A stretch of DNA of 32,000 nucleotides, taken from contig CAWAKW010000015.1 in NCBI GenBank assembly GCA_963782735.1, positions 3,451-35,450 on the forward strand, read 5' to 3'. The translations under genes and the position numbers were made by a program. This DNA comes from Nitrospirota bacterium. GTDB taxonomy: Bacteria > Nitrospirota > Nitrospiria > Nitrospirales > Nitrospiraceae. Position 1 is the first letter of the stretch, and each line of letters opens with the position of its first letter. This document shows, one piece after another, positions 7,935 through 26,516 of this stretch. A model generated the notes under the pieces. The model was not told the DNA's origin, made no database searches, and saw only the letters and a list, made by a program, of their open reading frames with translations.

Positions 7935-8882
7935 TTAGGGCTTCCAGGGCGTCAGTGGCATCAGCGGAGCATCCTTGGCTACCGGTGTAATCGTCAGCGC
8001 GGCAATGGCTCCACGAAGGGCTCCAGTGAGCGAATGCGTCACAATCGGATAGACCCCGGGTGATTCGGAGACCAAGTCGAATGTGGCGGCGCTTCCGGGT
8101 CCCACGACATAGGTTTGCACCCCCGTGAGTTTGTTGTGAGGGTTCCCGCTCTCGTAGACGTTGTCCCAAATCTCGCCGATCGGGTGGAGCGAGGAAAACT
8201 CGTTGGGGCCCGCGTTCACAAAATAGATCCGGACCCGCTCATTCGGTTTCGCCTCCAGCGCTTCCGCGCCGATGAAGAAGGGATGATACTTGAAGATCCC
8301 TCCGTTGAAGACCGTATAGTCGAACTTCCGAGCGAACATGGCCTCGACATCGTCGGGGTTCTTCCAGAGCTCAGATTGGACCAACAAAAACTCCCGGTCC
8401 GCTTTCGGCCAGACCTTCGGATCCTTGGGATCGACGATAATCGCGCCGAACATGCCGCGCGCGACGTGCTGGATCATGGGCGCTGCGCCGCAATGATAGA
8501 AAAACACGCCGGGCTTCTTCGCCACAAAGGTGAAGGAAATGGTTTCTCCCGGATTGATGGCCCGGTAGTTCTTCAGGAAATCGATTTCCGCCGCATGGAA
8601 GTCCATGGCGTGTGGAAAAACATTGGTCTTGGGATTCTCCAGCGTGAAGTTGACAGTGTCGCCTTCCGTGACCCGCACGGCCGGCCCCGGCATCTGGCCG
8701 TTGAACGTCCAGGCCTTATATTTCGTTCCCGTTCCTTCAATCACGATTTCCGTTTCGAGCGCCGTCATCTTGACGTCATGGGTCTTCGCGGATGCCTCGG
8801 AGGGCAATCCCATCAATCCGGCCATCGCAAGGACCATGGCCCCTGCGATGGCCATCAGTTGAGGTGATTGTCTTTTCATCAT
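7935..8882 (-). CDS. nirK: Copper-containing nitrite reductase (two-domain NirK)
   Basis: The track ORF extends to 8999, but ATG at 8882 is preceded by gaaggag. Signal peptide MMKRQSPQLMAIAGAMVLAMAGLMGLPSEASA. Cu ligand blocks: PHAMDFH (T1 His, catalytic Asp, T2 His), FFYHCGAAPMIQHVARGM (T2 His-T1 Cys...His...Met), LHPIGEIWD, IVTHSL. Confidence 0.85.
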   Translation of the reverse strand: MMKRQSPQLMAIAGAMVLAMAGLMGLPSEASAKTHDVKMTALETEIVIEGTGTKYKAWTFNGQMPGPAVRVTEGDTVNFTLENPKTNVFPHAMDFHAAEIDFLKNYRAINPGETISFTFVAKKPGVFFYHCGAAPMIQHVARGMFGAIIVDPKDPKVWPKADREFLLVQSELWKNPDDVEAMFARKFDYTVFNGGIFKYHPFFIGAEALEAKPNERVRIYFVNAGPNEFSSLHPIGEIWDNVYESGNPHNKLTGVQTYVVGPGSAATFDLVSESPGVYPIVTHSLTGALRGAIAALTITPVAKDAPLMPLTPWKP

Positions 8883-9108
8883 GGTTGAACTCCTTCTCTG
8901 AAATGGTTGGGCGAACTGCTCCAGGCAAATGTGCAACTGGTCTTTTCTATGTGAGGGTCTCACTGGCACTTCGTCTGTGTGTGAGGAAAAGAATAACATA
9001 GCCAGAATTTGCCAGTGTATATCGTAGTGTCCGGTTAAGAGTCAAGCACTTTGTTAGTCCCAAATGAGCCTGTGACCGGCCACTGTCGTGCCGGCTGGTG
9101 GCTCTTCC

Positions 9109-9249
9109 ATGGCAGAGTTTAAGGTCGAAGTGCCCGGAACCTATATCAATGTTGACCACGCAATCTTCCGCATCGCAAAAGGCGCCGTTGGCCTGATAAA
9201 GGTGGAAGGCGCAGATCAACCGGACATCTACAAGAACCTCCTGAAGTAA
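9109..9249 (+). CDS. Candidate 46-aa small protein of unknown function
   Basis: My own translation (below the track cutoff): MAEFKVEVPGTYINVDHAIFRIAKGAVGLIKVEGADQPDIYKNLLK. It is followed by a 12-bp hairpin and a canonical terminator on the same strand. Only a weak SD (ggtgg). No family recognised. Confidence 0.3.
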   Translation: MAEFKVEVPGTYINVDHAIFRIAKGAVGLIKVEGADQPDIYKNLLK

Positions 9250-9260
9250 TCGGAGGAGAT

Positions 9261-9293
9261 TACACCGCTGTGACCTCAAAACACAGCGGTGTA
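9261..9293 (+). other. Perfect 12-bp stem-loop
   Basis: tacaccgctgtg (9261-9272) / cacagcggtgta (9282-9293), 9-nt loop acctcaaaa, 12 nt after the small-ORF stop. Confidence 0.5.
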
Positions 9294-9384: not shown

Positions 9385-9858
9385 CGGAAGGGTGAGTTAT
9401 TGGGGTGATTGTAGGTGGTAATCGCAACGTATCTGGTTCACAGCATATCTGATGTCACGAAGTTGCCGGTAAGATCGCTGTCAGCCCATCTCCAGTTGCG
9501 TGTGGATTATCGTCCGTTCTGCAAGACTCAACTGCGTGTAGATGTTTCCCCTGCAACACTTTCTCCCAAAAATGTTGCAGGTGGGTTTTGAGCCAGCCCA
9601 TATTAAAACCGCTCGATTGTACCCTGCCTCTTGACCGCGAGTGATCTGTTTCTGTAACATCTCGCATTCACCGTGATTTTTACAATGATGCTCTTTGGTA
9701 TGTGCGCCAGTGCGTGAAGCCTCCAAAGCACTGGTCGTGCGCAGCGCTCTAGAATTGCCAACGTGCACGGAACAACGAACTAATGTCTTCGTCGAAAAAT
9801 GAAGAAGATCTATAGCTCCAAGGAATTTTAGGGAAACCGGATATTTAGGAGGAACAGC

Positions 9859-11641
9859 ATGTCATCGCATGGAGCGGCAACTCTACCAGTAGAAGACATT
9901 CCAGCACATAGAGAAACCCCAAAACGGGGTGGCTGGGCTGAAGCATTGGCAATACGACCTGATGGCGGGGCTGCAAGTCGCCATGATGGGGATCCCGCTC
10001 TCGCTCGGTATTGCGATTGCCTCCGGTGCGCCTCCGGTCTGTGGTCTGATCTCGGCGATCATCGCGGGATTTGTCTTCCCCTTCCTCGGGGGAGCCTATA
10101 TCACGATCAGCGGCCCGGCCGCCGGCCTGGCGCCGGCGCTGATGGCCGGCACGCTCGCATTGGGTCATGGAGATTTGGAGGCGGGCTATCCGCTCTTGCT
10201 GGTGGCCATTTCTATCGTCGGTGTCGTTCAGGTGATCTTCAGCATCTTCAATGCCGGGAGATTCGCGCTGTTTTTTCCCATCTCGGTGGTCGAAGGCATG
10301 TTGATGGCGATCGGCATGCTGATCATCATCAAACAAATCCCGGCATTTCTCGGGTACATCACACCGCCCATCAAATCCATTCCCAAAGCCATCATGCTGA
10401 TATCCCCGAACATGTCATGGGCCTGAATCCGTTGATCACCGTGATTGGAGCGGTGACCCTCTTCCTTCTCTTTTTTATTAGCGGCATCCTTGCCCGTATA
10501 AAAGGAAAGTGGCCGAAGCTCGTCCCGGTGCCCCTCGTCGTGATCGTTCTAGCCGGCTTGGTCTCTTGGATCCTGGGGCTCGAGGAGAAATAGCTCATTC
10601 ATGTACCCCTCGATATTTTTGAACATGGCATCGTCTTTCCCCATTTCGCTGAAGCCTTTTCCAGACCAGATTTATATGGGTCTCTCATACTCATCATTAT
10701 CACCCTGACCCTCATCGACGGCACCGAGTCGCTCGCGACGATCGCCGCCATCGATAAGATCGACCCGTTTAAACGAAAGTCGAACCCCAATGTCACCTTG
10801 CGGGCCATGGGGGTCTCCAACACCGCTTCCAGTCTGCTGGGTGGATTGACGATCATCCCCGGCGGGCTCAAAAGCACGGTCAACATGCTCGCAGGGGGCC
10901 GAACCCTCTGGGCCAACTTCTACTATGCCTGCTTTCAGTTGATCATCCTGCTGTTCGCCGCAGCCCTCATCAATCAAATTCCAAAATCGGCCCTGGCAGG
11001 GTTGCTCATGTGGATCGGATGGAAACTCTGCTCGAACAAAGTCTTCAAGCGGATCTTTCTCGGTCGGCAAGGAACAGATTTTTCTCGCCCTGGTCAACGT
11101 CGTGGTGACGTTATCCACCTCGGACCTGCTGGACGGCATGATCGTCGCCACCCTGGCGAAGATTGTCTTGCTCGTGAAGGATGTCGTACGGGCTTCGGCC
11201 AAGGATCCCCAGGGCGGCGGGATAGGGGGCGCATTCAAAGAATTGTTCCGCAATCCCGTCATCCGCATCGGAGACAGCCGCGGCTCTCGTGAGGTGATGA
11301 CCGTCGCGGCGAATGCGGTGCTACGGGGCACCGTCGGGGAGATGAAGAATCCCTACAAAATCTACCTGTCGTCGGCCACCTGTATGAATTTGGTGAAACT
11401 CGACGCGGCGCTCAAGGCAATCGTCATTCCTGAGGGCATGAAAGCCAACTATATGATCATTTTGGCCGGAAAGATTGTGGACCACACCACCATGGAATAT
11501 TTACACGGGTTCCAGGATCGCTGTATTGAAGCCGGGCATACCTGTGTCCTCGTCGGGATGGAGCACTTCCGTGGGCTCTCGGACCACGCGCTGGCCTATC
11601 GCGTGAGTCAAGTCCCTGGGAACCTCACTGCCTTTGCATGA
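9859..11641 (+). pseudogene. SulP-family anion transporter with C-terminal STAS-like domain, disrupted by frameshifts and an in-frame stop
   Basis: Strong SD aggagg + ATG at 9859. SulP-like sequence is spread over frames: frame 2 from 9929 (DLMAGLQVAMMGIPLSLGIAIASGAPPVCGLISAIIAG...), frame 1 from ~10410 (NPLITVIGAVTLFLL...PLVVIVLAGLVSW), an in-frame TAG at 10591-10593 and then continuation (LIHVPLDIF...TLIDGTESLATIAAIDKIDPFKRKSNPN..LRAMGVSNTASSLLGGLTIIPG), and frame 2 again from ~11070 (EQIFLALVNVVVTLSTSDLLDGMIVATLAKI... to the STAS-like end). Frame switches lie near 10395-10415 (CCCC run) and 11050-11075. One more probably lies between 9859 and 9929. Confidence 0.75.
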
Positions 11642-11721
11642 GGCGGCGCGGAAACGTCAGGCGGGAGGCGTCGGTTACATCTCATTATGATATTGTCCAA
11701 ACCGTTCAGGGAGTACCATTG

Positions 11722-12006
11722 ATGGCTGATCCGACTCCGCCCCATCAGCAAGGCTGTGGCATCATCGAGGCCAACATGCAATACAACCGTATCCCCGATG
11801 ACGGCTTTCTGTTGCTCGCCGTAGCGCCCTACCAGGAAGTCGGTGTTGACCCTGCTCGCGCCGTACTCAAGAGCCGCTTTATGGCCGAATTCGCCTCTGC
11901 CATCATCTGGACAGACTATCCCAAGCTAGCGGACAAGCTGCACGTGGCAAGGGCTGTCATTCCCAGGCAGACGCGGGCGCTGGAGGTGCTTAATGGCCGC
12001 ATGTAG
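11722..12006 (+). CDS. Hypothetical protein (94 aa from ATG 11722)
   Basis: Track ORF 11638-12006. The internal ATG at 11722 is preceded by cagggag. No recognisable motifs. Confidence 0.4.
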   Translation: MADPTPPHQQGCGIIEANMQYNRIPDDGFLLLAVAPYQEVGVDPARAVLKSRFMAEFASAIIWTDYPKLADKLHVARAVIPRQTRALEVLNGRM

Positions 12007-12053
12007 CCTGAATAACATGTCGATACACTGCACTAATTGAAAGGAGTGCCGAA

Positions 12054-12464
12054 ATGCAAGCGAGTATCTTTGTCGCAGAAGATGAACCTGCGCTTCTCAA
12101 CGCGATTGTAAAGCGGTTGTCGAAGGGCTCGAATAAAGTCCGTGGTTTCAAGTCCGGGGATGAACTGCTGGTTGCAGTTGAGCAAGAGATTCCCGATCTG
12201 GTTCTCGTCGACATGAAGATGCCTGGGAAAACAGGGATCGAAACCCTGGCGGCACTTCGCGCGAAATCGCGAGATGTGGTGGTGATCTTGCTGACCGCAT
12301 ATGGAACAGTCGAAGAGGCGGTCGAGGCCATGAAACTGGGGGCCTATGACTTCATCATTAAGACCGTGGACCTCCAGCTGGTAGAACCGGTTGTTAACCG
12401 GGCATTAGAGCATGTGCTACACCGTCAGGTGGCTGACGTAGCCAAGGATAAAGCCGATCACTAA
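12054..12464 (+). CDS. Single-domain response regulator (receiver only, NtrC-like receiver sequence)
   Basis: 136 aa. SD aaaggag upstream. IFVAEDEPALL..., phospho-acceptor context LVLVDMKMPG, LLTAYG, KLGAYDFIIK. The ORF stops after the linker with no output domain. Confidence 0.8.
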   Translation: MQASIFVAEDEPALLNAIVKRLSKGSNKVRGFKSGDELLVAVEQEIPDLVLVDMKMPGKTGIETLAALRAKSRDVVVILLTAYGTVEEAVEAMKLGAYDFIIKTVDLQLVEPVVNRALEHVLHRQVADVAKDKADH

Positions 12465-12609
12465 GGACTGGCCAGACTCGTCGTGCACATTCGCGACGTA
12501 GCGCAAAATCCGAAGACGACCACTCGTCACACCGCTTCGAGCTGGATCTAAATCCTAGGCATTCACATGGTCGTTTCTGGCATGAAGGCTGGAGTGCGAG
12601 GGAGATTCC

Positions 12610-14542
12610 ATGTACCAGCGCATCGCCGGCCTGTTCAATAATCTTCCGATTCATTCCAAGCTACTCCTCATCACTACCATCCCTCTCGCCTCCCTCATTC
12701 TCGTCAGCATCGTGACATACATCAATGTGCAAACCTTTTCGCAGGATGAAGAGCGGCTGAACAATCTCTATCTTACCCAGAAGGCTGCAGCCCAATACAT
12801 GCGGCTGGTGGTCGACTTAGAGACGGGTTTTCGCGGATATGTGTTGACCGAAGATGCTCGCGATCTCAAGCCGTATCAGGAGGCGCTAGCAAAACCTTCG
12901 TGGGGTCGAGACAAGATCTGAAGGAGAGACTTTCAGAGAGACCAGCAGCAACACTTCAAGGATGCTGAAGCCCTCGTTAGCCAGATCGTCGCAGAGAAGG
13001 AAGGACTCATCAAAGACCTTCAATCTGGCCGAAAGTCGATCGTGCTCCAGTATATCAACGAAGGGCGAGGAAGAGCACTGATGTCCGAGTTTCGGACTTG
13101 GATGGCACGACTCGATACATTTGAGCAGAAAAGCGCGCTCGATGAGTTCGCTCAAATAAGCCTAGATCGCACGTCGACACTTCTTGCAATTTTAGGCGGT
13201 GGGCTATTTACGTTTGGGTTCATCGTCTGTGCGCTCTATCTGATTGCCCGATCGATCGCGATCCCTCTTGTCAATCTGTCGAAGGCCGTTGCTGATTCAT
13301 CCGGCGGGCTTTGTCCTGTCATCCCTGTTTTGGACCGGAAAGACGAGATCGGAGGCCTCACCAGGGTGATGCAAGAGATGAGTCGGCAGGTTCAGGAACA
13401 GTTTGATCAAGTGCTAAAATCCGAGGCGTCGCTCCGTATACTCAACCAGCATTTATCCGACTCTGAATCGAAGTACCGCGGTCTGGTGGATAACGCTCCG
13501 ATCGGCATCTTTACGACGAAGGGGATGCAGGTCACGTTCAGCAATCGACACAATCAAGTCTTAGCCGGGCTTGATCCTGACGAAAAGATCGATCCCGCCG
13601 CTTTCCGTGCACGAATTCATCCTGAAGATCTCGAGCGTGTTATGTCGGAATTTTCACAGGCTGTCGCGGCGAGCCGCCAGTGCGAACTGATCTTCCGGTT
13701 TGTCCACGCAGACGGAGGCGTACGGACTATTTTGAGTCGGCGCGTGCCGATCGCTGATCTCGATAGCCCCAATCCGATCTATGTGGCGTTCAATATCGAC
13801 ATTACGGCGCTACATGCCATGCAATTGCGGTTAAGTCGGACCGAGAAGTTGGCGACGTTGGGGCAGATGGCGGCCGGCATTGCCCATGAGCTCAGGAATC
13901 CCCTGGTCGGGATCGGCTCGACGGCATCGCTGTTATTGGATGAGTTCGAGCCGGCAGATCCAAGACGCGCTGAGATCGACGTGATTTTTCACGAGGCCAA
14001 ACGAATGGATCGGATCGTGAATCAGATTGTTGAGTATGCGAGGACTCGCGAGCTTGTGCTGGTTCAATTTGTTTTGTCCGACCTCATCAACCATATCCTC
14101 AAGTTGCTGAGCGGGCCTCTGCAGGCTAAACATCTCAAGGTCCGAACTTCCATATCTCAGGGAGCCGACCATCTGCACGCTGATCGAGACCAAATCGAGC
14201 AAGTGCTTATAAACGTCATCGACAATGCGATCGATGCCTCTCCCACGGGACGGATTGTCCATGGAAATCGCGGCGTATGAGTTTCTCCACCAGGAACAGC
14301 CCGGCATCATGATACAAGTCCGAGATGCCGGTAAAGGTATTTCACCAGAAGTGCTGTCCCGCGTCTTCGAACCATTTTTTACGTCGGGGAAACGTAACGG
14401 AACTGGATTAGGGATGGCGATCTGCAAGAACATTATCGAGAGGCATCGTGGAGAGATCCATCTGACAAGCGAGGTTGGAGAAGGCACCATCGTGAGTATT
14501 TGGCTGCCTAAATCCCAAGATATCCAGCTGGTGAAAGGCTAG
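12610..14542 (+). pseudogene. CHASE3-HAMP-PAS-HisKA-HATPase sensor histidine kinase, interrupted by an in-frame TGA and a frameshift
   Basis: Three track ORFs. 12610-12921 has a TM segment plus CHASE3 (ETGFRGYVLTEDARDLKPYQEA) and ends at TGA 12919-12921. Reading continues in the same frame (12610 and 13042 are both 1 mod 3) through RRDFQRDQQQHFKDAEALVSQIV into ORF 13042-14280 (TM, HAMP, PAS, H-box GIAHELRNPL, N-box INVIDNAIDASPTG). A frame change near 14242-14256 leads into ORF 14225-14542 (LSMEIAAYEF...VRDAGKGISPEV..FEPFFTSG..GTGLGMAICK). Confidence 0.75.
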
Positions 14543-14545
14543 CCC

Positions 14546-15147
14546 ATGCAGGCAATCATCTTTGTGACTGACGATGAGCAGGCGACTCGCTCGGACATTG
14601 CCAAACCGCTGACTCGGCAAGGCCATCATGTGGTTGGGTATGAATTCGGCGAAGAGTTGCTGGAGGGGCCTCAACACAACCTTCCTGACCTTGTGTTGCT
14701 CGATGTGAAGATGCCATTTCTTCAGCGGTCTGAGGCACATGCTTTAACGCATCCAGCTGACTCAGGAGTTCAACAAACCAATTCCTGATATTGCTCCAGC
14801 AGCGCGTGCGGTACTGGAGCGATACCAATATCCAGGAAACGTTCGTGAACTTCAGAATATTCTCGAACGGGCTATGGTCTTTTGCCAGGGACGGACGCGT
14901 ACGCCCGCTTGTTCGCCAAGTGAAGTGTGTGAGATCGCACCGCATGTGGCAGTGGCCTCAGAAATTGTGACAGATTCGATGCTCCGGATCGATATGAAGC
15001 CCGGACAACAGACTCTCGCCGACATTGAGCGGATGGTCATCGATGAAGTCTTGCGGCTGGCGAGCTACAACAAGACGTTGGCTGCCAAGCAGCTTTGGTT
15101 TCACTCGTTTCTCGCTCGATCGACGGCTAAAGAAGGTTGCAGACTGA
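14546..15147 (+). pseudogene. NtrC-family sigma54-dependent response regulator remnant (internal deletion plus frameshift)
   Basis: Receiver start MQAIIFVTDDEQATR...LPDLVLLDVKMP (14546-~14715). It then jumps in another frame to the extreme C-terminus of the AAA+ domain: IQLTQEFNKPIPDIAPAARAVLERYQYPGNVRELQNILERAMVF (from ~14745). The Fis-type HTH LADIERMVIDEVLRLASYNKTLAAKQL is broken by a 1-nt shift near 15093-15100; the shifted frame reads FGFTRFSLDRRLKKVAD-stop at 15145-15147. About 250 or more codons (Walker A/B, GAFTGA) are missing. Confidence 0.7.
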
Positions 15148-15402
15148 TGAGGCGAACTTTTTCACTTGGCTGCCGAGTTTCTGGTTTGTCCTTGTAGGGA
15201 GATATAGACGAGGGTCGCCGCTTGATTGCTCAGATCCACAACTCTTCCGGTGTTATTTTCTGATCGTGGGTTCATTCCAGCGCTGCCTATCCGTGAAGAC
15301 GACGCTCGAGAGAACGAGCGGGAGAATGTCGTGTACTTCGAGCCTGAGCAGGCGCGTTGTGCCGTCTCCGAGATGTCCATTTTAAGCATTCTTCTCGTTC
15401 CA

Positions 15403-15446
15403 TAAAAAAGCCGATCCGCCGGCCCGTCTTACGACGGCGGCGGATC
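15403..15446 (-). terminator. Rho-independent terminator of the amoCAB operon
   Basis: On the minus strand, 27 nt after the amoB stop: GCCGATCCGCCG (15446-15435), 13-nt loop, CGGCGGATCGGC (15421-15410), then TTTTTT (15409-15404). Confidence 0.7.
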
Positions 15447-15472
15447 GGCGTCACGCTTACGTGACTAAACCC

Positions 15473-16739
15473 TTAGCTTGCTGAGGCCCTCGTGAAGACC
15501 GGGATGATGTTACCAGCAATACTGTTGATGTGGCGATTGCCGGATTCGTCCCAAGACATGATGAGACCTCCGAAGCGCTGATCAGGATCGTGGACCAGGT
15601 CCATAAGTCTCTGTACTTCCCAGAGCGAGTCTCTCGAGTCGATCTTGACCTCTTTGCTTTCGCCCGGGTTGATTGGAGACTCATCCTCGATATGCAAGCC
15701 GTCTGTTGCCATAATCTCCGCTGGGTAGTCCGGGTCCATGTTGTTGGCTACGCCAACCTTGTTGAGGAACCGGATACCTGCCGTTGTGAACTCTCCAATC
15801 CTGAGTGGCTGCTCACCGCTGTTGGTCACCTGCAGGGTCATGCGCAGGGCGCGACCAGGAACATCGTAATCTGCGGCGAGCACCTTTACCGTAAGATCCG
15901 ACTTCAAATGAGTCGCCTTGATCTTTGGTTCACCCGCCTGGAGCGGGATGGTATACGGATACTGACTGTCCGTAACGAAGAAACCAACGGCAATCAAAAC
16001 AAAGACACACTCCTAGCATCCCAAAGGCCACTACGCGGTCAACTGGATCGTTCAGCAGTGCGTCTCCACCCTCTTGGGCCAACACACGCGCACGAATGAG
16101 GAACATTGGTCTGATCATGAACCAGCCGATCCAGGCAAATCCAAGCCCACCCCATATCAAATGCCAGAAGAGCCCGGCCGCTAGGCCTGCGGTTTCTGTA
16201 TCGATGGTTCCTCCAACCAACAGCTTTGCTGGGTTGGTGAAGTCTTTATAATTGCCTGTGATATCCATCCAGCCTCCAGGTCCGGCGATAGGCCCGGCCC
16301 CATTGACTGCCAACATCGGGTGGATGTGGTGGTGGCCAGGTAACCGGCCCCTCAGCTTAATCACGTATTCGTAGTCCCCACCGATCTCCATCGGGCCCGA
16401 GGTGAACATCGGAACCCCGTTCACTTTCGAGCTGAGACGTGTGAACACCGAACTTGGGCTCCCCACGTTGATGAACGTACGATTGGGCTTGACGACGGCC
16501 CGAGGCCAGTCTTCCGATATGTGCAACTTCCCCGACAACATCGCTTCATCGTTGACGGCGGTTTTCTGCGGATTCCACCTTGTGTCGTACCATTGAGCGG
16601 TACGCATCCGCAGGAACGGTTCCTGAGAGCGCTCCCCGTGGGCGGCAGCGGGTGAGGCATTGAACACCAGGGTGAGCCCCAGCGTCGCCATCCCGAGGGA
16701 GCCAATCACGCACAATTTGAATATGTTTTTAGCGTTCAT
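15473..16739 (-). pseudogene. amoB: Ammonia monooxygenase subunit B (AmoB), reading frame broken by a single extra nucleotide (true pseudogene or assembly error)
   Basis: Track ORFs 15930-16739 (269 aa) and 15473-15997 (174 aa) together give a colinear AmoB/PmoB. It has a signal peptide, the N-terminal His ([22 protein letters not shown]), the HxH site (GHHHIHPML) and two TM helices. The C-terminal cupredoxin domain follows ([11 protein letters not shown]...LRMTLQVTNSGEQPLRIGEFTTAGIRFLN). The span is 1267 nt (3n+1). The frame switch is confined to 16004-16012, between the downstream-frame TAG at 16013-16015 and [10 protein letters not shown], inside GTGTGTC. Confidence 0.85.
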
Positions 16740-17629
16740 GATTTCCCTTCCGCTAATGTAGCTCCGCCCGACAATCTAGGTGCAACTCCATCCGGCGTAC
16801 CATGTCTCGCTGCAAACTCATCTGTACCGACGATCATGATATCGTTCTTCCGTGACATAACGCCACGTCTACCCTTAACCCAAAAGAACGCTTGCCCGAC
16901 GAAGTGCCCCATTTGCCACCAAATGGTGAACATCAACATGGAGATGAAGGCCGAGAAGAACGCGGAAATCCAGACGGTGTGGCCGCCAAACGTACGCAGC
17001 GATCCCACCTCGATGATTCGGATATACTCAGGCGTCCCCGTACGGACATAGGTGAATCCCATGTAGTCGGCCAGAGACAGCAGCTGACCATCCACCACCA
17101 ACGGTTGATGGCTGTACCCGAATAGGGCATAGTTTGTCGGATTAAACATCATCGCGAACGCCCATACCCCGAATATTGCTGTGAGCATCCAACTCCGAGT
17201 CAGCAACAGGGTACAGTCGAGGATCAGCGCACTGGAGACCATGGTGGCCGGCATGACGAAGTTTGCCGGAAAGTTGGCCCACCAGTACCAGGCAAACAAA
17301 ACCGTGATCCACTTCCCGACGAGCAGCCCCGTGATGCTCAATGTTGCACCAAACGGTTGCCGATAGAACGTCCAGAAGTAGTACATGATCGCCCCGGGAT
17401 ACATGACCTCCACAATTGGTGTGACCGTCACCCAAAACTGCCGGTCCTTCCAATCGATCCAGAAATCCCAGTCTCCTGCAAGCAGGTCGAAGTGCATATG
17501 AAATGTTGCGAACACCCCTAAATACGCAATCGGAAGAAAATACACCGCGTCTATCATTCTTGACAGCTTGACGCCTTCCGGCGGAAGCTTGCTGGCTTTG
17601 ATAATCTCAGCGGTTCTAAACAGTGCCAT
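16736..17629 (-). CDS. amoA: Ammonia monooxygenase subunit A (AmoA)
   Basis: 297 aa. Hallmark CuMMO-A blocks: [84 protein letters not shown] gaggagggg upstream. The stop overlaps the amoB start (ATGA at 16736-16739). Confidence 0.93.
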
Positions 17630-17657
17630 TTGTCCCCTCCTCGCTCGTTCTGAACAT
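17616..17657 (-). promoter_or_regulatory. 13-codon upstream ORF ([13 protein letters not shown]) created by duplication of the amoA RBS/start region
   Basis: Minus strand reads AGGGAGGGGACAG-ATG-TTCAGAAC...GAGGAGGGGACAA-ATG-GCACTG-TTTAGAAC. GGAGGGGACA[G/A]ATG occurs twice, 30 nt apart. The upstream ATG (17657) opens a +1-frame ORF ending at TAG 17616-17618, 14 nt inside amoA. Confidence 0.3.
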
Positions 17658-17692
17658 CTGTCCCCTCCCTAAATATCCAACTGGCTGGGCGG

Positions 17693-17723
17693 CCCCGTTC
17701 TCTCCGGCATCCGGAGTACGGGG
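17693..17723 (-). other. Nested stem-loop in the amoC-amoA intergenic region
   Basis: Minus strand: CCCCGT-a-CTCCGG-atg-CCGGAG-aga-ACGGGG. There is an outer 6-bp and an inner 6-bp helix, in the 121-bp amoC-amoA spacer. Confidence 0.4.
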
Positions 17724-17750
17724 TCAGCCCGCCAAAGTCGACGGCACGTC

Positions 17751-18551
17751 TTAGTACGGGATCACGTGCAAGCAGTCCTTGCTCTCGTTGTTCCAGACCA
17801 CATCGCACAGGTTGGACATGCGCGCTACGATCTGCGCCGCCACGCCGCCCGTGCCCCCGAACAATCCGCACCAGCCCAGGGTCACAAAGCCCCAGTGCAA
17901 CGGCGCCGCAAAGAGTTCATCGACGAACCAGAACGCATGCCCCCACTCATTGAGGCCCACGTTCGGGAGAATCATCATCGGCCCCACGATCGCCCCCACC
18001 AACGGGAACGACACCGCCTTGCTGAACTGCGGCAGCCGGGTCATGGCATACAGATAGCTCGCCACGCCACAGGTGATGTACAACGGGAAGGTGAAGTAGA
18101 AGGCAATGATATGGCTGGCCGTAAAGCTCGTATCGCGGATGATCACTTGATGCCACGAGGCATCCTGCTCGAGCGTATAACTGCCCGCCCAATAGACCCC
18201 GAACACGTACACCGCGAGCCACATCATCCAATAGAAGTACCGCTTGAGCTCGGTCTTGGGATCGACGTTGGCGATGTTGCGATCCCGGGTACTCCAAATC
18301 CACCCGAGGGTGGAGGCCGAGAAGATGATGTTGGAAATCACGTTAAAGCGCCACAGCCCCATCCAGACATTTTCGAACTCCGGCGTCATGGAATCCAGGC
18401 CGTGGGAATACCCGAAGACACGCTGAAAGACGACCTCGGCCCCTACCGCCGCCAACATCGTAAACCAGCCGATCTTGAGGGGCCGGGAATCGTACCAGAG
18501 CGACATGTCGTAGCCCCGATCCGCCCCCCCTCCCCATGTTGTACTAGCCAT
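17751..18551 (-). CDS. amoC: Ammonia monooxygenase subunit C (AmoC)
   Basis: 266 aa. AmoC/PmoC blocks: [76 protein letters not shown] aaggagg 7 nt upstream. Confidence 0.93.
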
Positions 18552-18656
18552 ACACTGACCTCCTTGTTAAGTGATTGAGACCCACCGCTTATTCCAGAGA
18601 AAAATTCTCCGGCGAAACATTGATACTGGTTGCTGCCGTTAGATCTGCGTGGCGGG

Positions 18657-18686
18657 AGATTAGCGGATACAGTTTCTTGATGTCAA
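18657..18686 (-). promoter_or_regulatory. Candidate sigma70 promoter for amoC
   Basis: Minus strand TTGACA (18686-18681), 18-nt spacer, TAATCT (18662-18657). This predicts a ~100-nt 5' leader before ATG 18551. It lies between the IS left end (18739) and amoC. Confidence 0.4.
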
Positions 18687-18738
18687 GTAGAATATCCAAG
18701 GTTGAAGCCTTGTCTCGCTTGCAAAATGCGTGCAACGA

Positions 18739-18757
18739 TCTATGCACTTAACTCCAG
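18739..18757. repeat. IS left terminal inverted repeat
   Basis: ctatgcacttaactccagt, the exact reverse complement of 19721-19739. Confidence 0.85.
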
Positions 18758-18772
18758 TTTATCGCCTACTAT

Positions 18773-19681
18773 TTAGGAGGTGGCTGCGGTCAGCCTCGAG
18801 TAGGGGATAGGCTCAATCGCGACGGTTTGTGCGACAAGTTTGTAGAACAGTTTCCAGCGGTATCTCGACGTTCGACGGTTGAACCGAAATGTGAATTCGT
18901 CGAGATAGGAGTCCAGTTGCTCACGGGACAATGCACCTTTATGGGTACCCAACAACCAGCGTTTCAATAAGGAAGACACCTTGTGCACGCGGGGTAGCAA
19001 AGCCGACGTTATTTTGCCGCTGGCGTTGATCAGGCGCGGTTGGTGCTTGAAGCCTTCCTGCTTCAAGCCCACGTAGGCCTTCCATCCATCTGTGATGACC
19101 ACGGAACCAGGTTCAACCGCGTATTTCACGAAGGCGACGAGCGAGCTCGGAGAGGCAGAGGGAATCCGACGCAGGCAGATGCGCCCAATCCCCTTCCCGT
19201 CGACCTGCGCCGCGATCGCCACCAGGGCCTTGCTTCCCATGTGCCGACGGCTTCGTCCAGCCTCGACGCCCACCACATATGTTTCGTCCACTTCAATCTG
19301 GCCTCCCAGGCTGTCCCAGCCAGGCCGTACCACTGCGCGTCGCAGTTTCTGCAGCCACAACCACGCCGTCCTGTAACTGCCAAAGCCCAGTAGGCGCTGT
19401 AGCCCCAAGGCACTGAGCCTATGTTTCTGATCGGTCATCCACCACATGGCTCGGAACCAGTCCTGCAGAGGAAGGCGGGTTCGATGAAAGATCGTTCCAG
19501 CCGTTACTGAGGCTTGGTATCCACACCGGCGGCACATCAAAAGGCATCGTGTGGTTGTCCAACTGCCGCTGGTCATGCATTGGGGGCAACAGAACCCGGT
19601 CGGCCACCGCAGCCTGGCCAGATAGGCACGGCAGGCACCTTCTGTAGCGAAGCGCTGTTCGAACTCGGAGAGGGTTCGCAT
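18773..19681 (-). CDS. IS1595-family DDE transposase with N-terminal zinc ribbon
   Basis: The track ORF starts at GTG 19693, but ATG at 19681 has SD ggagga 5 nt upstream. Zn-ribbon: CRAYLARLRWPTGFCCPQC...CRRCGYQASVTAGTIFHRTRLPLQDWF. DDE_Tnp_IS1595 blocks: IEVDETYV, VITDGWKAY, YLDEFTFRFNRR. Confidence 0.85.
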   Translation of the reverse strand: MRTLSEFEQRFATEGACRAYLARLRWPTGFCCPQCMTSGSWTTTRCLLMCRRCGYQASVTAGTIFHRTRLPLQDWFRAMWWMTDQKHRLSALGLQRLLGFGSYRTAWLWLQKLRRAVVRPGWDSLGGQIEVDETYVVGVEAGRSRRHMGSKALVAIAAQVDGKGIGRICLRRIPSASPSSLVAFVKYAVEPGSVVITDGWKAYVGLKQEGFKHQPRLINASGKITSALLPRVHKVSSLLKRWLLGTHKGALSREQLDSYLDEFTFRFNRRTSRYRWKLFYKLVAQTVAIEPIPYSRLTAATS

Positions 19682-19720
19682 ATAGTCCTCCACGGTATAA
19701 CTCCAGCACGCCTGGCGCGT

Positions 19721-19739
19721 ACTGGAGTTAAGTGCATAG
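19721..19739. repeat. IS right terminal inverted repeat
   Basis: actggagttaagtgcatag. An internal 9-nt copy taactccag (19698-19706) can pair with 19722-19730. Confidence 0.85.
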
Positions 19740-20077
19740 CCTAATTCGCATGCAAAAAAATATACAATGTTGTATTAAAAATCAAGCTTACGGGGAGATC
19801 TGCACGTTAAGCAATATCCGTGCCGGTTTAGTTATAACGATCAGCTACGTTTTCTCGATCCTGTGCCCACCCTTAACATACGGACGTAACTGACTCATCC
19901 GATTGTTCGTGTGTATTCAAGAGTGGCGCTGCCAGCCAGGACTTCAAGGACCACGGTCACATGGGTCTGACACGCTCGGGTTGCCGGGAGCACAGCCTCC
20001 ATTCCGCTTTCCTGATAATGACTGTTGAAAATGTAGCTGCGCAATCCACGCCACACCCCGTTACTTCGACACGAAGC

Positions 20078-22099
20078 TCAGTGCACATGGTCGTCTGGTG
20101 GCGGACGGAGTTCCTTTTCCCGATTGAGTTGTTCGATCTGCCGCGTCAGTTCGCCGATGTCTGTCCACCCCGCTCCGTCCACGTTAGGAATCCAGCGCGC
20201 CCGCAAATAACCGTAACGATCTATGAGGAACTCCATGTGCTTGGGTGATGTTCCCTCACCAGCCAGATCAGGATTGCTGAGAGTCCTACGGAATAGAGCA
20301 TAGCTGCGTGCGATCTCCGGCGCTCCTTGTGTCGCCACTGGAAAAGGCATGTCTGCTGTGATCGCTGCCAGGTCTTCCGGGTTGAGATCATTCACTGGTG
20401 CCGCCAATATCACCGTATTGGCGCCGCTTAGTGTGGCATAAGCCAGCCGCAGCTGATCGAGCCTCGCGCGCGACTCCGGCCACGAAAACAGGACCAGCAG
20501 TACCGCTTTCTGCCGACGGAAGTCCTTCAAGGTACCGCTCGTACCGTCATGCGCGGAATAGGAGAAATTCTGCGGGGCCATGTAGGGCTGATTGGGGGCG
20601 ACGTAGGGATTAATGAGGCGAGCTTGATAGCCGCGGGAGGTGGCATGGAGAAAGTTCACCACATCCCAACGATCCTCTTCCGAGAGTTTGTCCGCAAATG
20701 CCGGCATGCCGGTACCGGGAATACCATGGGTCAGCCAGTGGAAAAAGTCTCCAGCAGTGTGCTTGGCCGTGTGCGGCTCTGTGAGCAGATCCACCGGTGG
20801 TATAGCGAAAGTCTTGGCCAGAACGCCATTGCCCTTGGCTTGAGGTCCGTGGCAGAGCACGCAGTTCGCGGCAAATATGGTCGCACCGTTGGCAACGGAA
20901 ATGGCATCGAACGGGACCGGTGTCTTGCGGTAGGTTTCCGGGAAAGCTTGAGTGGCAAGGGGAGGCAGCGCTGCAACCAGCGCACAGACCGCCAGTACGG
21001 CCGGGATGGCAATGCGCCACTTCGTCTCCCAGAGCTTGGTTCGACCGAGGGCAACTGCCCCACCTGCCAGGGTAAGCAGTGCGACTCCGACCCCCCCCCC
21101 GATCATTACGCCCAACCCGCCCCAGGTGGCGTCGATGGAGAAGCGGAATGGATAGGGCCAGTCCTCAATGACGGCATGTTTCGCCGGCACGGCGTTGGCT
21201 AGCACTGTCGCCACCAATACCAGTACCAACGCGATTACGAATTCGATGGTGACCCACTTTCGAAGTCCCTGTTTGCCGACTGCAGCCACGTCCGTGTTCT
21301 GGTCGAGTGACGGAATCCAGATGCGGCGCGCACACGCGCCGATCACGAGAATCGGCGCGAGCAACGCAAGCTTTGTATTGAGAAACCAGCCCCAGCTCGT
21401 TGCGACCAATGCGGCGTAGCTCGTGTCCACCATGTCATTCGCAACGATGATGCCGGTGGCCACGACAGCGACCATCACAGGAAGCGCTATTGCAGAGAAA
21501 CGCTTCATGGTCTGGATGTCGAACCGATCCACTTCCTCGTGTGATCGTTTCCCGGCGGTGGCGAACATTATTGAGAGAATAGCCGGCAGCCCTCCGAGCC
21601 AGACGCTTGCCAGAACAATATGCAGCGCGTAAGGCAGCACCGATATCACGGATAGTTCTCCGGCTGCGGAATGGCTTGCGAGCGATCCTGCAGCCAGCGT
21701 GAGTGCAGCGACGGTCGCGCACAGCACATACCGCCAGCGTGCCCAAGGTGAGAAGCGAATGTAGAGAGCCATTCCGAGCACGAGCAGCGCAAGGGCCGCG
21801 CGTGCCGTCCAGATGAGTCCTATGCGGGTTTTTTGTAAGAGTTCTAGCCAGGCTCCCGGGTGCCAAGCATTTTCAGCCAAGCCCGTAGCCTGCGCGGTAG
21901 TCGTGGCCAGCAAGCCTAGTAACCCCAGCAGAAGCGTGGCCGAAAGCCACGGTAACGCCCGTTCCAGACGGGCTAGCCATGGGATGTCGAGTGCGGTTTT
22001 CGCATGCACCGCAATTGCAAGAAAAACGCAACTGCCGATCAGGATCATGTTGGACGCAAGCTGCAGCCAGCGGAGCAGCGCGCCGATGACCTCGATCAT
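20078..22099 (-). CDS. copD: CopD-family membrane protein fused to a c-type cytochrome domain and a C-terminal thioredoxin/redoxin-like domain
   Basis: 673 aa. Residues ~1-385 are polytopic membrane (CopD-like; 10 or more hydrophobic segments). The haem motif CVLCH at aa 413-417 (nt 20849-20863) has a distal GIPGTGMPAF. The last ~170 aa (KAVLLVLFSWPES...FLIDRYGYLRARW) resemble an AhpC/TSA or thioredoxin-fold domain without the active-site Cys. The start overlaps the copC stop (ATGA). Confidence 0.8.
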   Translation of the reverse strand: MIEVIGALLRWLQLASNMILIGSCVFLAIAVHAKTALDIPWLARLERALPWLSATLLLGLLGLLATTTAQATGLAENAWHPGAWLELLQKTRIGLIWTARAALALLVLGMALYIRFSPWARWRYVLCATVAALTLAAGSLASHSAAGELSVISVLPYALHIVLASVWLGGLPAILSIMFATAGKRSHEEVDRFDIQTMKRFSAIALPVMVAVVATGIIVANDMVDTSYAALVATSWGWFLNTKLALLAPILVIGACARRIWIPSLDQNTDVAAVGKQGLRKWVTIEFVIALVLVLVATVLANAVPAKHAVIEDWPYPFRFSIDATWGGLGVMIGGGVGVALLTLAGGAVALGRTKLWETKWRIAIPAVLAVCALVAALPPLATQAFPETYRKTPVPFDAISVANGATIFAANCVLCHGPQAKGNGVLAKTFAIPPVDLLTEPHTAKHTAGDFFHWLTHGIPGTGMPAFADKLSEEDRWDVVNFLHATSRGYQARLINPYVAPNQPYMAPQNFSYSAHDGTSGTLKDFRRQKAVLLVLFSWPESRARLDQLRLAYATLSGANTVILAAPVNDLNPEDLAAITADMPFPVATQGAPEIARSYALFRRTLSNPDLAGEGTSPKHMEFLIDRYGYLRARWIPNVDGAGWTDIGELTRQIEQLNREKELRPPPDDHVH

Positions 22100-22500
22100 T
22101 TCTTTTGCACTTTGCCCTTTACCGTGAAGTCGAAGGACGACTCCACCACGTGACCGTCTACCGACAGTACTCGAAACTTTACTGAATACTTTCCGGGCGT
22201 CAACTCCGGCAATGGGAGAACGATGGACTTTGGGTCATCTGGAGTAAGTTGAGGCTTGATCTCGGTAACGGGATGTTTCTCGGCGTCGAGTACAACAAGC
22301 GACGCGTACTCGCCTTCGAGTTCCTCGTTGAACCAGAGTCGCACCTGCGCCGGCGCCTTGGCGAGGACAGCCCGGCGTGGCGGCTCTGCCTTGACCAGCA
22401 TTGAATGCGCCAGCGCTGGGGCGGCATGCGCGCCCATCGCCATCAGCATCGCTACTCCTATCATGACGCGCTTGAGTGCATGAACCGCCCATGATTCCAT
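22096..22500 (-). CDS. copC: Periplasmic copper-binding protein CopC
   Basis: The track ORF runs to 22674. ATG at 22500 is preceded by aaggagaggggga. Signal peptide ...AAPALA, then mature N-terminus HSMLVKAEP (the His1 Cu(II) ligand position), and SVDGHVV near the C-terminus. Confidence 0.85.
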   Translation of the reverse strand: MESWAVHALKRVMIGVAMLMAMGAHAAPALAHSMLVKAEPPRRAVLAKAPAQVRLWFNEELEGEYASLVVLDAEKHPVTEIKPQLTPDDPKSIVLPLPELTPGKYSVKFRVLSVDGHVVESSFDFTVKGKVQKK

Positions 22501-22594
22501 TGGATCTCCCCCTCTCCTTGACTGCTGCGTTCGAGTAAAGCAGCCGGTCTTTTGCACGCCTCGGTTCGGCGTACTGCTCTCAGTGACCGGCTGC

Positions 22595-23206
22595 CTACGA
22601 AGCGGTGCGAACCGACGGCTTGCGACGACTGCGCAGGAAAAAGAATATCGCCGCTCCACCGGCAATCGCTGCAAGCGGGACTATGACCATGATGTAGTGC
22701 ATGAAGTGCGAAACCACTCCCGATTCTCCTACCGAGATCGGGAATCGCGCGATATGTTCCTCCTTGCCGCCAACGGTGACTACACCGATGAAATTGCCTG
22801 GCTGGGTGAAGTTATATTCGAAATTAATGAACCCCCCAGGGTAGACCTTGGCCGGCAGGTGAAGGACCGTGTTGGCCTGAAGATCCTGTTCCGAACCCGT
22901 ATCCTTGATGACCCGGACCTCGACGGGCAACGAGCGGAGTTCCCCTTCGATATAATCGAGCACCAACACCGTGCGTCCGATCGACGGAACATCCCCGCAG
23001 AGTTCCCTCGAGGCTGAGGTATCAGGTTGATATTCTGTAAGATGCATGCCGTAGGGTCCGAGCTTGAGTATGCAGAAGTTTTTGTCCAATTCGTGAAAGT
23101 GCTGGGCCTGTGCGGAGAGCGGAGCTCCGATCGCCAATATCAAGAAGCACACGCAAGCAGGTTTGAGAAATTGCAAAGACATCGTCAGTATCCTCATCAT
23201 TATCAT
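22595..23206 (-). CDS. amoD: AmoD/PmoD-family periplasmic, C-terminally membrane-anchored putative copper protein (paralog 1)
   Basis: The probable start is MSLQFLK at 23182 (SD gagga). It has a signal peptide, His-rich mature N-terminus QHFHELD, motif FCILKLGPYGMHLTEYQPD, a second Cys (ELCGDVP), LPVEVRVIKDTGSEQDLQ, and a C-terminal TM helix IMVIVPLAAIAGGAAIFFFL. Position before copCD matches amoD in known AMO clusters. Confidence 0.7.
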   Translation of the reverse strand: MIMMRILTMSLQFLKPACVCFLILAIGAPLSAQAQHFHELDKNFCILKLGPYGMHLTEYQPDTSASRELCGDVPSIGRTVLVLDYIEGELRSLPVEVRVIKDTGSEQDLQANTVLHLPAKVYPGGFINFEYNFTQPGNFIGVVTVGGKEEHIARFPISVGESGVVSHFMHYIMVIVPLAAIAGGAAIFFFLRSRRKPSVRTAS

Positions 23207-23275
23207 CTTTTAGACAGCTCAATTTTCTCGTTGAACCAGAGTTGCAACTGCTCATTGGACCGGATGGCCGGTCGC

Positions 23276-23854
23276 TTACGAAACGGTATTGCTTGACGTT
23301 GTGCCACGCCCGCGCAGGGCAAAGAAGATCACTCCGATAACGGCAACCCCTGCGAGCGCAATCAAGAAGTAGGTGGGGGGTAACCATATTTTTGTTTCCC
23401 CTACCGAGAACGGAAATCGCGATACATGTTTATCACCTACGGTGACCAGACCAACGAATTTGCCAGGCTGGTCAAAGTTATATTCGAAATTAACCGAGCC
23501 GGCAGGGTAGACCTTGGGCGGTAGGTGAAGAATCGTGATGGCCTGAAGGTCTTGCTCCGACCCCGTATCCTTGATGATCCGAACCTCGGTGGGCAACGGG
23601 CGCAGTGCATCTTCCATATAATCGAGCACCACGACTGTACGGCCCGTCGCGGGAATGTCCTCACAGAATTCCTTATTGCGGGTGTTGTCCGGCTGATAGC
23701 CGGTAAAGTGCATGTTGTACGGGCCGATCGTGAGTCTGCACATGTCCTCGGCCAGTGCCAATCCTCCGTGAGCCTGGGCCTGTGTGGAGAATATAACCCC
23801 CATCGCCAGCATCAAGAAGCACAAGCCAGCAGATTTCACCAATTGCACAGCCAT
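23276..23854 (-). CDS. amoD: AmoD/PmoD-family protein (paralog 2, tandem duplicate of paralog 1)
   Basis: ATG at 23854 is preceded by gggaggatcc. MCRLTIGPYNMHFTGYQPD, EFCEDIP, LPTEVRIIKDTGSEQDLQ, C-terminal TM. It shares long identical nucleotide runs with paralog 1, e.g. the 17-mer gttatattcgaaattaa at 22811-22827 and 23477-23493. Confidence 0.7.
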   Translation of the reverse strand: MAVQLVKSAGLCFLMLAMGVIFSTQAQAHGGLALAEDMCRLTIGPYNMHFTGYQPDNTRNKEFCEDIPATGRTVVVLDYMEDALRPLPTEVRIIKDTGSEQDLQAITILHLPPKVYPAGSVNFEYNFDQPGKFVGLVTVGDKHVSRFPFSVGETKIWLPPTYFLIALAGVAVIGVIFFALRGRGTTSSNTVS

Positions 23855-23907
23855 TGTCAGGATCCTCCCTCTCGAATGTTGAACCATGTGCTCGCGGGCC
23901 GGAGCGC

Positions 23908-24501
23908 CTAGTTTCCCGTACGGCGGACTGCCCACCAATTCCGCAGCCATTTCGATCGTATGAGTATGTATCCAATGAATGCAACTACCAGCACTCCTAT
24001 CGCCGGTCCTGTCATGGTACGTATAAGCTTCTGGTAATCGATCATGTTTACCCGCAAGAGATACTGCGGGTGCTTCATAAGATTCTGCTTCTCCGCCGAA
24101 ATAGTTACCGTATACAGGCCCTCCTCCAGTCTGACTTCGCCCCTGAGCACTCCGTCCGGGTGAGTGCTTGGACGAAAATCTGCCACAATCTGATCTTCTG
24201 TCGCATTGCTCCCACTACCCTTCATGATACGCATACCGATAGGCTCGCTGCGTAACGCCGGGTCCACGAGGTCTACGACTAGGAAGGTGTCGCCTTCCTT
24301 GGGAATGTCTGTGCAGTATTGACCCCTCAGCTCGTATTGCGGCTGGTAGGCGCTGAAATGCACCACGCGCTCACCTACTCGGCGCAAGCATGGGTCGTCT
24401 TCTCCGCTCGTTGTTCCATGTGCAGAAGCGACTCCAGGTTGGTCCAGTGCGGCAAGAAGAATCAGCACCATGAGGCCTGCTCTTGTCACTTGCCTAATCA
24501 T
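23908..24501 (-). CDS. amoE: AmoE-like divergent member of the AmoD/E family
   Basis: 197 aa. SD caggagg. The architecture matches the paralogs (signal peptide, SAHGTTSGEDDPCLRRVGERVVHFSAYQPQ, QYCTDIP, C-terminal TM VLVVAFIGYILI). Met is replaced by Val before the conserved His, and identity is much lower. It is first in the amoE-amoD-amoD-copC-copD series. Confidence 0.6.
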   Translation of the reverse strand: MIRQVTRAGLMVLILLAALDQPGVASAHGTTSGEDDPCLRRVGERVVHFSAYQPQYELRGQYCTDIPKEGDTFLVVDLVDPALRSEPIGMRIMKGSGSNATEDQIVADFRPSTHPDGVLRGEVRLEEGLYTVTISAEKQNLMKHPQYLLRVNMIDYQKLIRTMTGPAIGVLVVAFIGYILIRSKWLRNWWAVRRTGN

Positions 24502-25204
24502 ATATGCGTGATCCTCCTGTTTGGAACCTCACGGTGATCCGTTGCTTCGTATGACGAAGCGGCCTCACCGCATAGTTGCGTATCTAGCCACATGTCCTAT
24601 CAAGGACAATCACTATGATGCCACTAACGCAGGGCAAGATTCTAGCCCCCCTCGCAAGGGAAGAGAAAATCTAACATGTGTTTTTCTGCTGGGCTGGGCC
24701 GAGCTCCAGCGATCCGATATGGAGCAGGCCTGATTGAGAGGATGTCTCGCATGGCGACAGCTTTCCCCCGGGTGTTCGTGAGCAACGGTTTCTTCTGCTG
24801 CAGACGCGGCTGAACTGGTTGCTTGGGGGATCTGCCCTGGTTCATTCTCGGTGTGGTGTGCTAGAAGAGGTACACCGAATTTTGTTCTGGTGCCCATAGG
24901 TTCGAGCAGCGGGCATCGGAGATGCGTTCATGCCATATCGACTCCAAACCATCTTTGACTTGCCAGTGTCAGATGGGCGACAATTATTATTGATGTGAGT
25001 GCGTTCTCTTTCATGAGGCCTCCAATTGCCATATCCATATAATAGCGACATCAATCTTGCGGATGGGTTAGCGTTTCAGCGACAGCTGGGTCTCTGTATG
25101 AGACGTCAGGCAGGGTCGAAAAAGTACTCACGAGCAGCACGACCCATGAAGATCCGACGCTATGGCAATTTTGTTTCTCCGGTCCCAGTAGGATTTCCCC
25201 GAAT

Positions 25205-25825
25205 ATGTTCCAAACCGTCGCACTGAGCGGCAGTCGCGGAGAACGACAGCTGTTCTCCGGCGTCAGCGTGACGGTCAAGCCAGGAACGCTATTGGCTGTG
25301 ACCGGTGAAAACGGCAGTGGGAAGACCAGCTTCCTCCGCATGCTGTGCGGCCTGTTATCTCCTGATGGAGGTACGATCCTTTGGCAGGGGAAAGACATCC
25401 GCCAACTCAAGGAACTCTATAGCGCCCAGCTTACCTATGTAGGGCATCTCAATGGAATTAAGGACGAACTAACCCCGGTCGAAAACCTCAAGGTCTCCGC
25501 TTCCCTGGCCGGCGATAAAAACTCCGGCGCAGTCGTGCAACAGGCATTGGAGGCCGTCGGTCTTGAGCCACGAGTTCATCGTCTGTCGACGAGGGTGCTG
25601 TCGCAAGGACAAAAACGCCGCGTGGCATTGGCTCGTCTCTGGCTTTCCACCCGTCCGTTATGGCTCTTGGATGAGCCGTTCGCTTCACTCGATACTGCAG
25701 CCACCAATTACTTAACCCAACGCTTGCAAGCGCATCTGAGTCATGGCGGCATGGTGGTCGTCGCCACGCACCAGGATATCGCTCTCCCAAGTGATTCCAT
25801 CCAGCACCTGAGGCTGACTCGATGA
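25205..25825 (+). CDS. ccmA: Haem exporter ATP-binding protein CcmA
   Basis: 206 aa. Walker A GENGSGKTS, signature LSQGQKRRVALA, Walker B LWLLDEP. The stop overlaps the ccmB start (ATGA). Confidence 0.88.
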   Translation: MFQTVALSGSRGERQLFSGVSVTVKPGTLLAVTGENGSGKTSFLRMLCGLLSPDGGTILWQGKDIRQLKELYSAQLTYVGHLNGIKDELTPVENLKVSASLAGDKNSGAVVQQALEAVGLEPRVHRLSTRVLSQGQKRRVALARLWLSTRPLWLLDEPFASLDTAATNYLTQRLQAHLSHGGMVVVATHQDIALPSDSIQHLRLTR

Positions 25826-26505: not shown

Positions 26506-26516
26506 GACAATTACGG

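Follow-up and report, generated by a model that had tools for sequence, protein, structure and literature searches.

The window, the stretch of 32,000 nucleotides of a Nitrospirota bacterium that was analyzed here, carries a comammox-type Nitrospira ammonia monooxygenase locus with the gene order amoC-amoA-amoB, all on the minus strand; copCD and ccm genes lie close to it. As given, the sequence contained complete amoC and amoA genes and an amoB distributed over two open reading frames (ORFs; 15930-16739 and 15473-15997) with one surplus nucleotide between them. The features of the locus are the following.

15473 to 16006, minus strand: downstream reading frame of amoB, matching positions 214-380 of PF04744 (E = 2.6e-56) and positions 242-410 of NF041640
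15930 to 16739, minus strand: upstream reading frame of amoB, matching positions 1-211 of PF04744 (E = 5.6e-84) and positions 13-240 of NF041640
16004 to 16010, minus strand: the lesion, GTGTGTC in the window versus GTGGTC (Val) or GTGTGC (Cys) in relatives
16736 to 17629, minus strand: amoA, intact (PF02461, E = 3.6e-92; TIGR03080 above cut-off)
17751 to 18551, minus strand: amoC, intact (PF04896, E = 7e-106; NF041641 above cut-off)

The upstream frame of amoB encodes a signal peptide, an N-terminal cupredoxin domain that contains H34 and H138-x-H140, the first transmembrane helix and the first half of the second; past the surplus base, 25 codons are read out of frame before the stop at 15932-15930. 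The second half of this helix and the C-terminal cupredoxin domain are encoded in the downstream frame, the listed ORF of which opens at a TTG at 15997; in an alignment with 421-aa homologues, homology reached further up, to the junction. Neither fragment alone scored above the curated cut-off of NF041640 (AmoB_BACT, 410 positions), and jointly they spanned nearly the whole of this profile and of PF04744 (380 positions). A TAG at 16015-16013 bounds the downstream frame and the stop at 15932-15930 ends the upstream one, so the switch of frame must fall between the two. The junction lies at residue 244, inside a strongly hydrophobic stretch (residues 231 to 260) that forms the second membrane helix. 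The ORFs, the profiles, the alignment and the position of the junction thus bear out the claim of the first-pass annotation that amoB is split by a single nucleotide inside this helix, and its arithmetic, by which a span of 1,267 nt (15473-16739) is 3n+1 and holds one extra base, was correct. The split is a genuine feature of the given sequence and no chance pattern.

A single uninterrupted amoB ORF with both cupredoxin domains and two membrane helices was absent from the sequence as given and present once position 16007 was removed. Removal of the surplus base gave an amoB of 421 codons, the length that had been predicted for the gene with one base fewer. The repaired product aligned end to end with solved AmoB chains (for example, 9leg_B; residues 1 to 417, E = 6e-163), and a protein search with it yielded full-length AmoB sequences of 419 to 421 aa, the best of which was 93% identical; entries labelled Nitrospira were 60 to 64% identical. 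H34, H138 and H140 were invariant columns in an alignment of 15 protein sequences. These columns, together with the profile and structure-chain alignments, agree with the earlier description of the metal-ligand motifs and the C-terminal cupredoxin domain as intact. In its full length of 421 aa and in the order amoC-amoA-amoB, the repaired gene resembles AmoB/PmoB (PF04744, NF041640) of clade-B-like comammox Nitrospira, and its product was 98% identical to that of the MFD00031.bin.1.108 locus. Unlike known AmoB, the gene as written is interrupted by one base.

Relatives were collected in a scan at one genome per species, which gave 40 amo loci; wherever the titles named an organism, these were Nitrospira, Nitrospiraceae or Nitrospirota metagenome-assembled genomes (MAGs), including known clade-B bins (CG24C and RCB). 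The closest relative was MFD00031.bin.1.108 (L001), whose identity was 98.8% in amoB and 96.8% over positions 14371-26748 of the window and which reads GTGGTC at the site of the lesion. Alignment with 13 relatives placed the surplus column at 16010-16004, in agreement with the earlier assignment of the frame switch to minus-strand GTGTGTC. The extra base was found in 0 of the 13 relatives in this 14-sequence nucleotide alignment, in which it formed the one unique gap column, in 0 of 39 genome loci in a 40-sequence alignment, and in neither of two metagenome contigs (L041 and L042) that matched the flanks exactly in a scan permitting the 6- or the 7-base version. No lesion common to independent assemblies of the lineage was thus seen, the extra base being absent from L001, L042, L002, L003, L041 and 34 further loci.

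In GTG[T]GTC, the surplus T corresponds to position 16007 (A on the plus strand). Its deletion gives GTG GTC, the Val allele of L001, L002, L003, L041 and L042, and deletion of the T at 16005 gives GTG TGC, the Cys allele, which about a dozen relatives carry; two of these (L014 and L022) have a context of ±8 nt that is otherwise the same as in the window. The Cys allele was restricted to relatives 80 to 87% identical in amoB; those more than 91% identical all carried the Val allele. The change from GTGGTC to GTGTGTC rules out a homopolymer error at this site. A literature search for a reported frameshift in comammox amoB gave nothing relevant, and exact queries of a gene-position collection with the truncated AmoB fragment and with AmoA gave no matches.

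Signs of decay were sought in amoB and its partner genes. Repaired amoB contained no internal stops or further lesions. It differed from that of L001 in 14 codons, and most of these differences, when polarized with L002 and L003, fell on the L001 branch; on the branch of the window there remained only I251V, possibly L195I, A395S (ambiguous) and one or two synonymous changes, the replacements L195I and I251V being conservative. Ratios of synonymous to nonsynonymous differences in amoB were 45:13 against L002, 42:11 against L042 and 89:10 against L041. Relative to L001, amoA, whose stop overlaps the start of amoB (ATGA), showed 19 synonymous and 3 nonsynonymous codon differences, and amoC showed 33 and 1, respectively. 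Over positions 15473-26748, 21 indels separated the window from L001; only the one in amoB breaks the frame of a gene, and the remaining ones are intergenic or multiples of three. By these measures, amoA, amoB and amoC are under purifying selection and carry no other lesion. Because repaired amoB shows no decay, its lesion would have to be extremely young or not biological, which is what the first-pass annotation had hedged with the words "very recent or artefactual." The same annotation had considered that a truly broken amoB would mean a dying copy of the operon or an organism that has lost ammonia oxidation. Neither was supported, given the purifying selection on all three genes and an extra base unique among 41 relatives, and both are further opposed by the membership of the amoB insertion in the class of insertions described below for Nanopore-only bins.

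Other features of the window near these genes deserve a brief description. At the 5' end of amoC (18524-18526), the length of a C run differs by 3 nt from that in L001, in frame. Between copD and amoC lies an intact IS1595-family transposase-like gene (18773-19693, minus strand; DDE_Tnp_IS1595 and zinc ribbon), which occupies the same position in eight relatives and shows ratios of synonymous to nonsynonymous differences of 17:5 against L001 and about 64:52 against L005; these data suggest that the gene is fixed and possibly domesticated, and not a mobile insertion. Three ORFs of 197 to 224 aa that lie between the ccm cluster and copC (22595-24501, minus strand) had no Pfam match, and two of them are paralogous (22584-23195 versus 23396-23867, about 70 to 73% nucleotide identity). 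By position, the three may be AmoD/AmoE-like candidates.

Downstream, amoB is followed by several damaged genes.

7935 to 9279, minus strand: multicopper-oxidase (MCO)-like gene (Pfam Cu-oxidase matches)
9859 to 11641, plus strand: SulP-like transporter gene (partial PF00916 match; alignments with L005, L042 and L015)
12610 to 14542, plus strand: CHASE3-PAS-HisKA-HATPase sensor kinase in three ORFs (Pfam matches on the pieces)
14546 to 15197, plus strand: remnant of a sigma-54-type response regulator, consisting of half a REC domain and HTH_8 (Pfam)

In an alignment with 6 relatives, the sensor kinase was broken by four 1-nt insertions unique to the window (at about 12890, 12910 and 12938 and at 14247-14250). 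Once repaired, it had 642 aa and no internal stop, and synonymous and nonsynonymous changes on its branch stood at 21:14, compared with 22:15 on the branch of L005 and 48:39 on that of L042. Since its substitutions look selected and stops are absent, the kinase is a poor fit to a pseudogene aged enough to have acquired four indels, in which stops and a predominance of nonsynonymous changes would be expected. Window-unique insertions also break the SulP-like gene, at about 9907 (+1), 10400 (+2, AT) and 11059 (+1), and in the MCO-like gene the N-terminal part is moved into another frame by a 1-nt insertion that only the window has, at about 8894. The three 1-nt insertions within 12890-12940 of the kinase total +3, as do those at 10400 (+2) and 11059 (+1) in the SulP-like gene, and in both genes the original frame resumes downstream; such sums could be due to chance (roughly 1 in 9).

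From within the response regulator, about 790 bp have been lost in both the window and L001; in L002, L005 and L007 the gene is complete, at 463 aa. L001 lacks the region corresponding to 9580-14370 of the window (the kinase region) entirely. Judged from its shared deletion, the regulator remnant is a genuine pseudogene with real damage. Across the loci, at least three independent events degraded the regulator: one common to the window and L001, one in L042 and one in L020. Natural decay as an explanation for the whole flank was consequently accepted for the regulator, with its deletion in common with L001, and rejected for the kinase, with its selected-type substitutions and its lack of stops after repair. 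The first-pass annotation was right to place amoB at the edge of a region rich in lesions, but this region proved to be mixed, with small insertions of the artefact type next to one genuine deletion in the regulator.

To survey unique indels, we aligned 16 segments of conserved coding sequence from the window with every fetched locus covering them and listed the indels present in one sequence only. Over the 19.3 kb surveyed in this way, the window had 10 frame-breaking indels of its own, and all were insertions (10 insertions and 0 deletions). They were located in the MCO region (2), the SulP-like gene (3), the kinase (4) and amoB (1); one of the two in the MCO region, at about 7918, falls in the spacer that separates the globin gene from the MCO gene. 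Similar events were found in four Microflora Danica bins, with 9 unique frame-breaking insertions in L005, 6 insertions and 1 deletion in L026, 3 insertions in L039 and 2 insertions in L011. Loci with contig names in the style of MEGAHIT or SPAdes (L002, L003, L006, L015, L016, L042 and others) had 0 such indels, apart from a few short-read-style loci with events near alignment edges. The lesions of the Microflora Danica bins affected amoC, copD, copC, the kinase and transketolase, and 0 were common to two assemblies. Per locus, these included +2 in amoC of L026, +1 in amoC of L039, events in copD and copC of L005 and five indels in transketolase of L026. L041 (metagenome contig Ga0213857_1000512) has a unique 1-nt insertion of its own in amoB.

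By the results of this survey, the window behaves like the Nanopore-only Microflora Danica bins. The MFD MAGs were obtained from Nanopore reads only, by Flye assembly and one round of Medaka polishing, and the soils sampled were highly microdiverse (PMC12313526). For soil data, frameshift errors have been reported to be more common in ONT than in HiFi assemblies (PMC13087279), and indel-driven frameshifts have been reported in ONT assemblies, in greater number for soil datasets (PMC9262707; PMC13087279). The lesions of the window resemble the frameshift errors of long-read metagenomes as scored by IDEEL, in which assembly-specific single-base indels split genes that are otherwise conserved. 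A generally noisy assembly with uniformly random indels was rejected, as genes of 761, 664, 673 and 663 aa were intact and the lesions clustered between 8.9 and 16.0 kb.

Many of the insertions coincided exactly with a polymorphic site and displayed two alleles side by side. At about 12910 the window reads AG where relatives have G or A, at about 12938 it reads AG where relatives have A or G, and at about 14250 it reads GGGACGG where relatives have GGG-CGG or GGA-CGG; at the amoB site, the GTC and TGC alleles combine to TGTC. We scored an insertion as positive when deletion of a different base within ±3 nt recreated the allele of another relative, and random simulated insertions in the same gene served as control. 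Among all unique 1-nt insertions, 19 of 31 were positive (expected, 5.25; P < 5e-6), and among those of the window, 7 of 9 were positive (expected, 1.33; P = 3.5e-5). The amoB site was positive as well; with 39 polymorphic relatives, chance alone gives a positive there with a probability of 0.29, and the signature is for that reason weak at amoB alone and draws its strength from the class as a whole. We know of no mutational process that yields an enrichment of this kind. Unlike the classic ONT error, which concerns the length of homopolymers, most of the events seen here are non-homopolymer insertions at polymorphic sites with both alleles in tandem, which points to the consensus of a mixed population rather than to homopolymer basecalling.

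The uniqueness of the extra base, the absence of decay in the operon and the membership in a class of insertion-only, both-alleles lesions as found in Nanopore-only bins all suggest that amoB owes its extra base to a consensus error, made when a mixed population was assembled from long reads, and not to a mutation, and we put the probability of this reading at about 0.8. The window would then most likely derive from a long-read (Nanopore-type) metagenome assembly, in which reads of two co-occurring variants of clade-B comammox Nitrospira were piled on one contig. At the amoB codon, one variant would have GTG GTC TTT (Val) and the other would have GTG TGC TTT (Cys). If these were aligned by gaps instead of mismatches (GTG-GTC versus GTGTG-C), a heaviest-path consensus could take the bases of both and arrive at GTGTGTC, one base over. 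Some observations run counter to this reading. All close relatives (>91%) carry Val, so that the close or cross-mapping second population is an assumption. The lesions are also concentrated between 8.9 and 16.0 kb, beside a regulator that has genuinely decayed, which would also fit a locally decaying region.

The best surviving alternative is a genuine and very recent +1 insertion, fixed or segregating, which would represent either a fresh inactivation of this amoCAB copy or a minority variant captured in the consensus, and which would truncate AmoB inside the second membrane helix with loss of the C-terminal cupredoxin domain. The base is present in the sequence as given, the locus adjoins real loss (the regulator deletion common to L001 and the kinase region missing from L001), and a very young mutation would agree with the lack of further decay. 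We nevertheless consider it unlikely. The insertion occurs in none of the 41 relatives, is neither of the homopolymer nor of the slippage type, and counts among 10 lesions that are all insertions and whose genes look selected in other respects, whereas indel mutation in bacteria is generally biased toward deletions. A mutational origin also leaves the both-alleles enrichment (P = 3.5e-5) without explanation, and the method rather than biology is implicated by Nanopore-only bins, in which transketolase, amoC and copD show this pattern, and by short-read bins, which lack it. That the base is real in a clade-B comammox Nitrospira which either has a freshly broken sole amoB and is reverting to a nitrite oxidizer or keeps AmoB partly functional through +1 slippage is, in our estimate, very improbable.

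Even less credence can be given to a real frameshift that is bypassed in translation, with a peptidyl-tRNA-Leu slipping from CUU to UUU to give full-length AmoB. The insertion does bring a CUU into frame ahead of a U (GUG UGU CUU UGU), with an AGGAG 5 nt upstream, and the predicted product would equal its homologues in length, with two hydrophobic substitutions within the second membrane helix. In its potential CUU-U slippery context and its upstream Shine-Dalgarno-like AGGAG (AGGAG-UGUGU-CUU-UGU, 16003-16015), the site recalls the programmed +1 frameshift of prfB, where the sequence is AGGGGG UAU CUU UGA C with a spacer of 3 nt. Unlike prfB, the amoB site has no stop in the A site, differs in spacing and is conserved in 0 of the orthologues examined: its A-site codon is the sense codon UGU, its spacer is 5 nt against 3 nt, and the shift site was present in 0 of 41 relatives. 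The AGGAG and the T run were inherited from the ancestor, in a different frame, and nothing suggests selection for such a device; for transcriptional slippage, no T or A run at the site is long enough. Expression of AmoB as two polypeptides is unlikely, as the sole start in the downstream frame is the TTG at 15997, which has no obvious ribosome-binding site and would leave about 9 hydrophobic residues of the second membrane helix.

On the artefact reading, amoB is very probably complete in the organism, at 421 codons, and its amoCAB operon functional. The occurrence of both alleles in tandem provides a simple reference-based flag for assembly errors of this kind. In public Nanopore-only bins of clade-B-like Nitrospira and in Ga0213857_1000512, the unique insertions would be misannotated as pseudogenes, and gene-content calls for this clade that are based on long-read soil MAGs, such as an absent or pseudogenized amoB, cannot be relied on unless the reads themselves are checked. 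If the frameshift were real, it would represent an uncultured clade-B comammox lineage in the course of losing ammonia oxidation and would bear on the gain and loss of this trait in Nitrospira.
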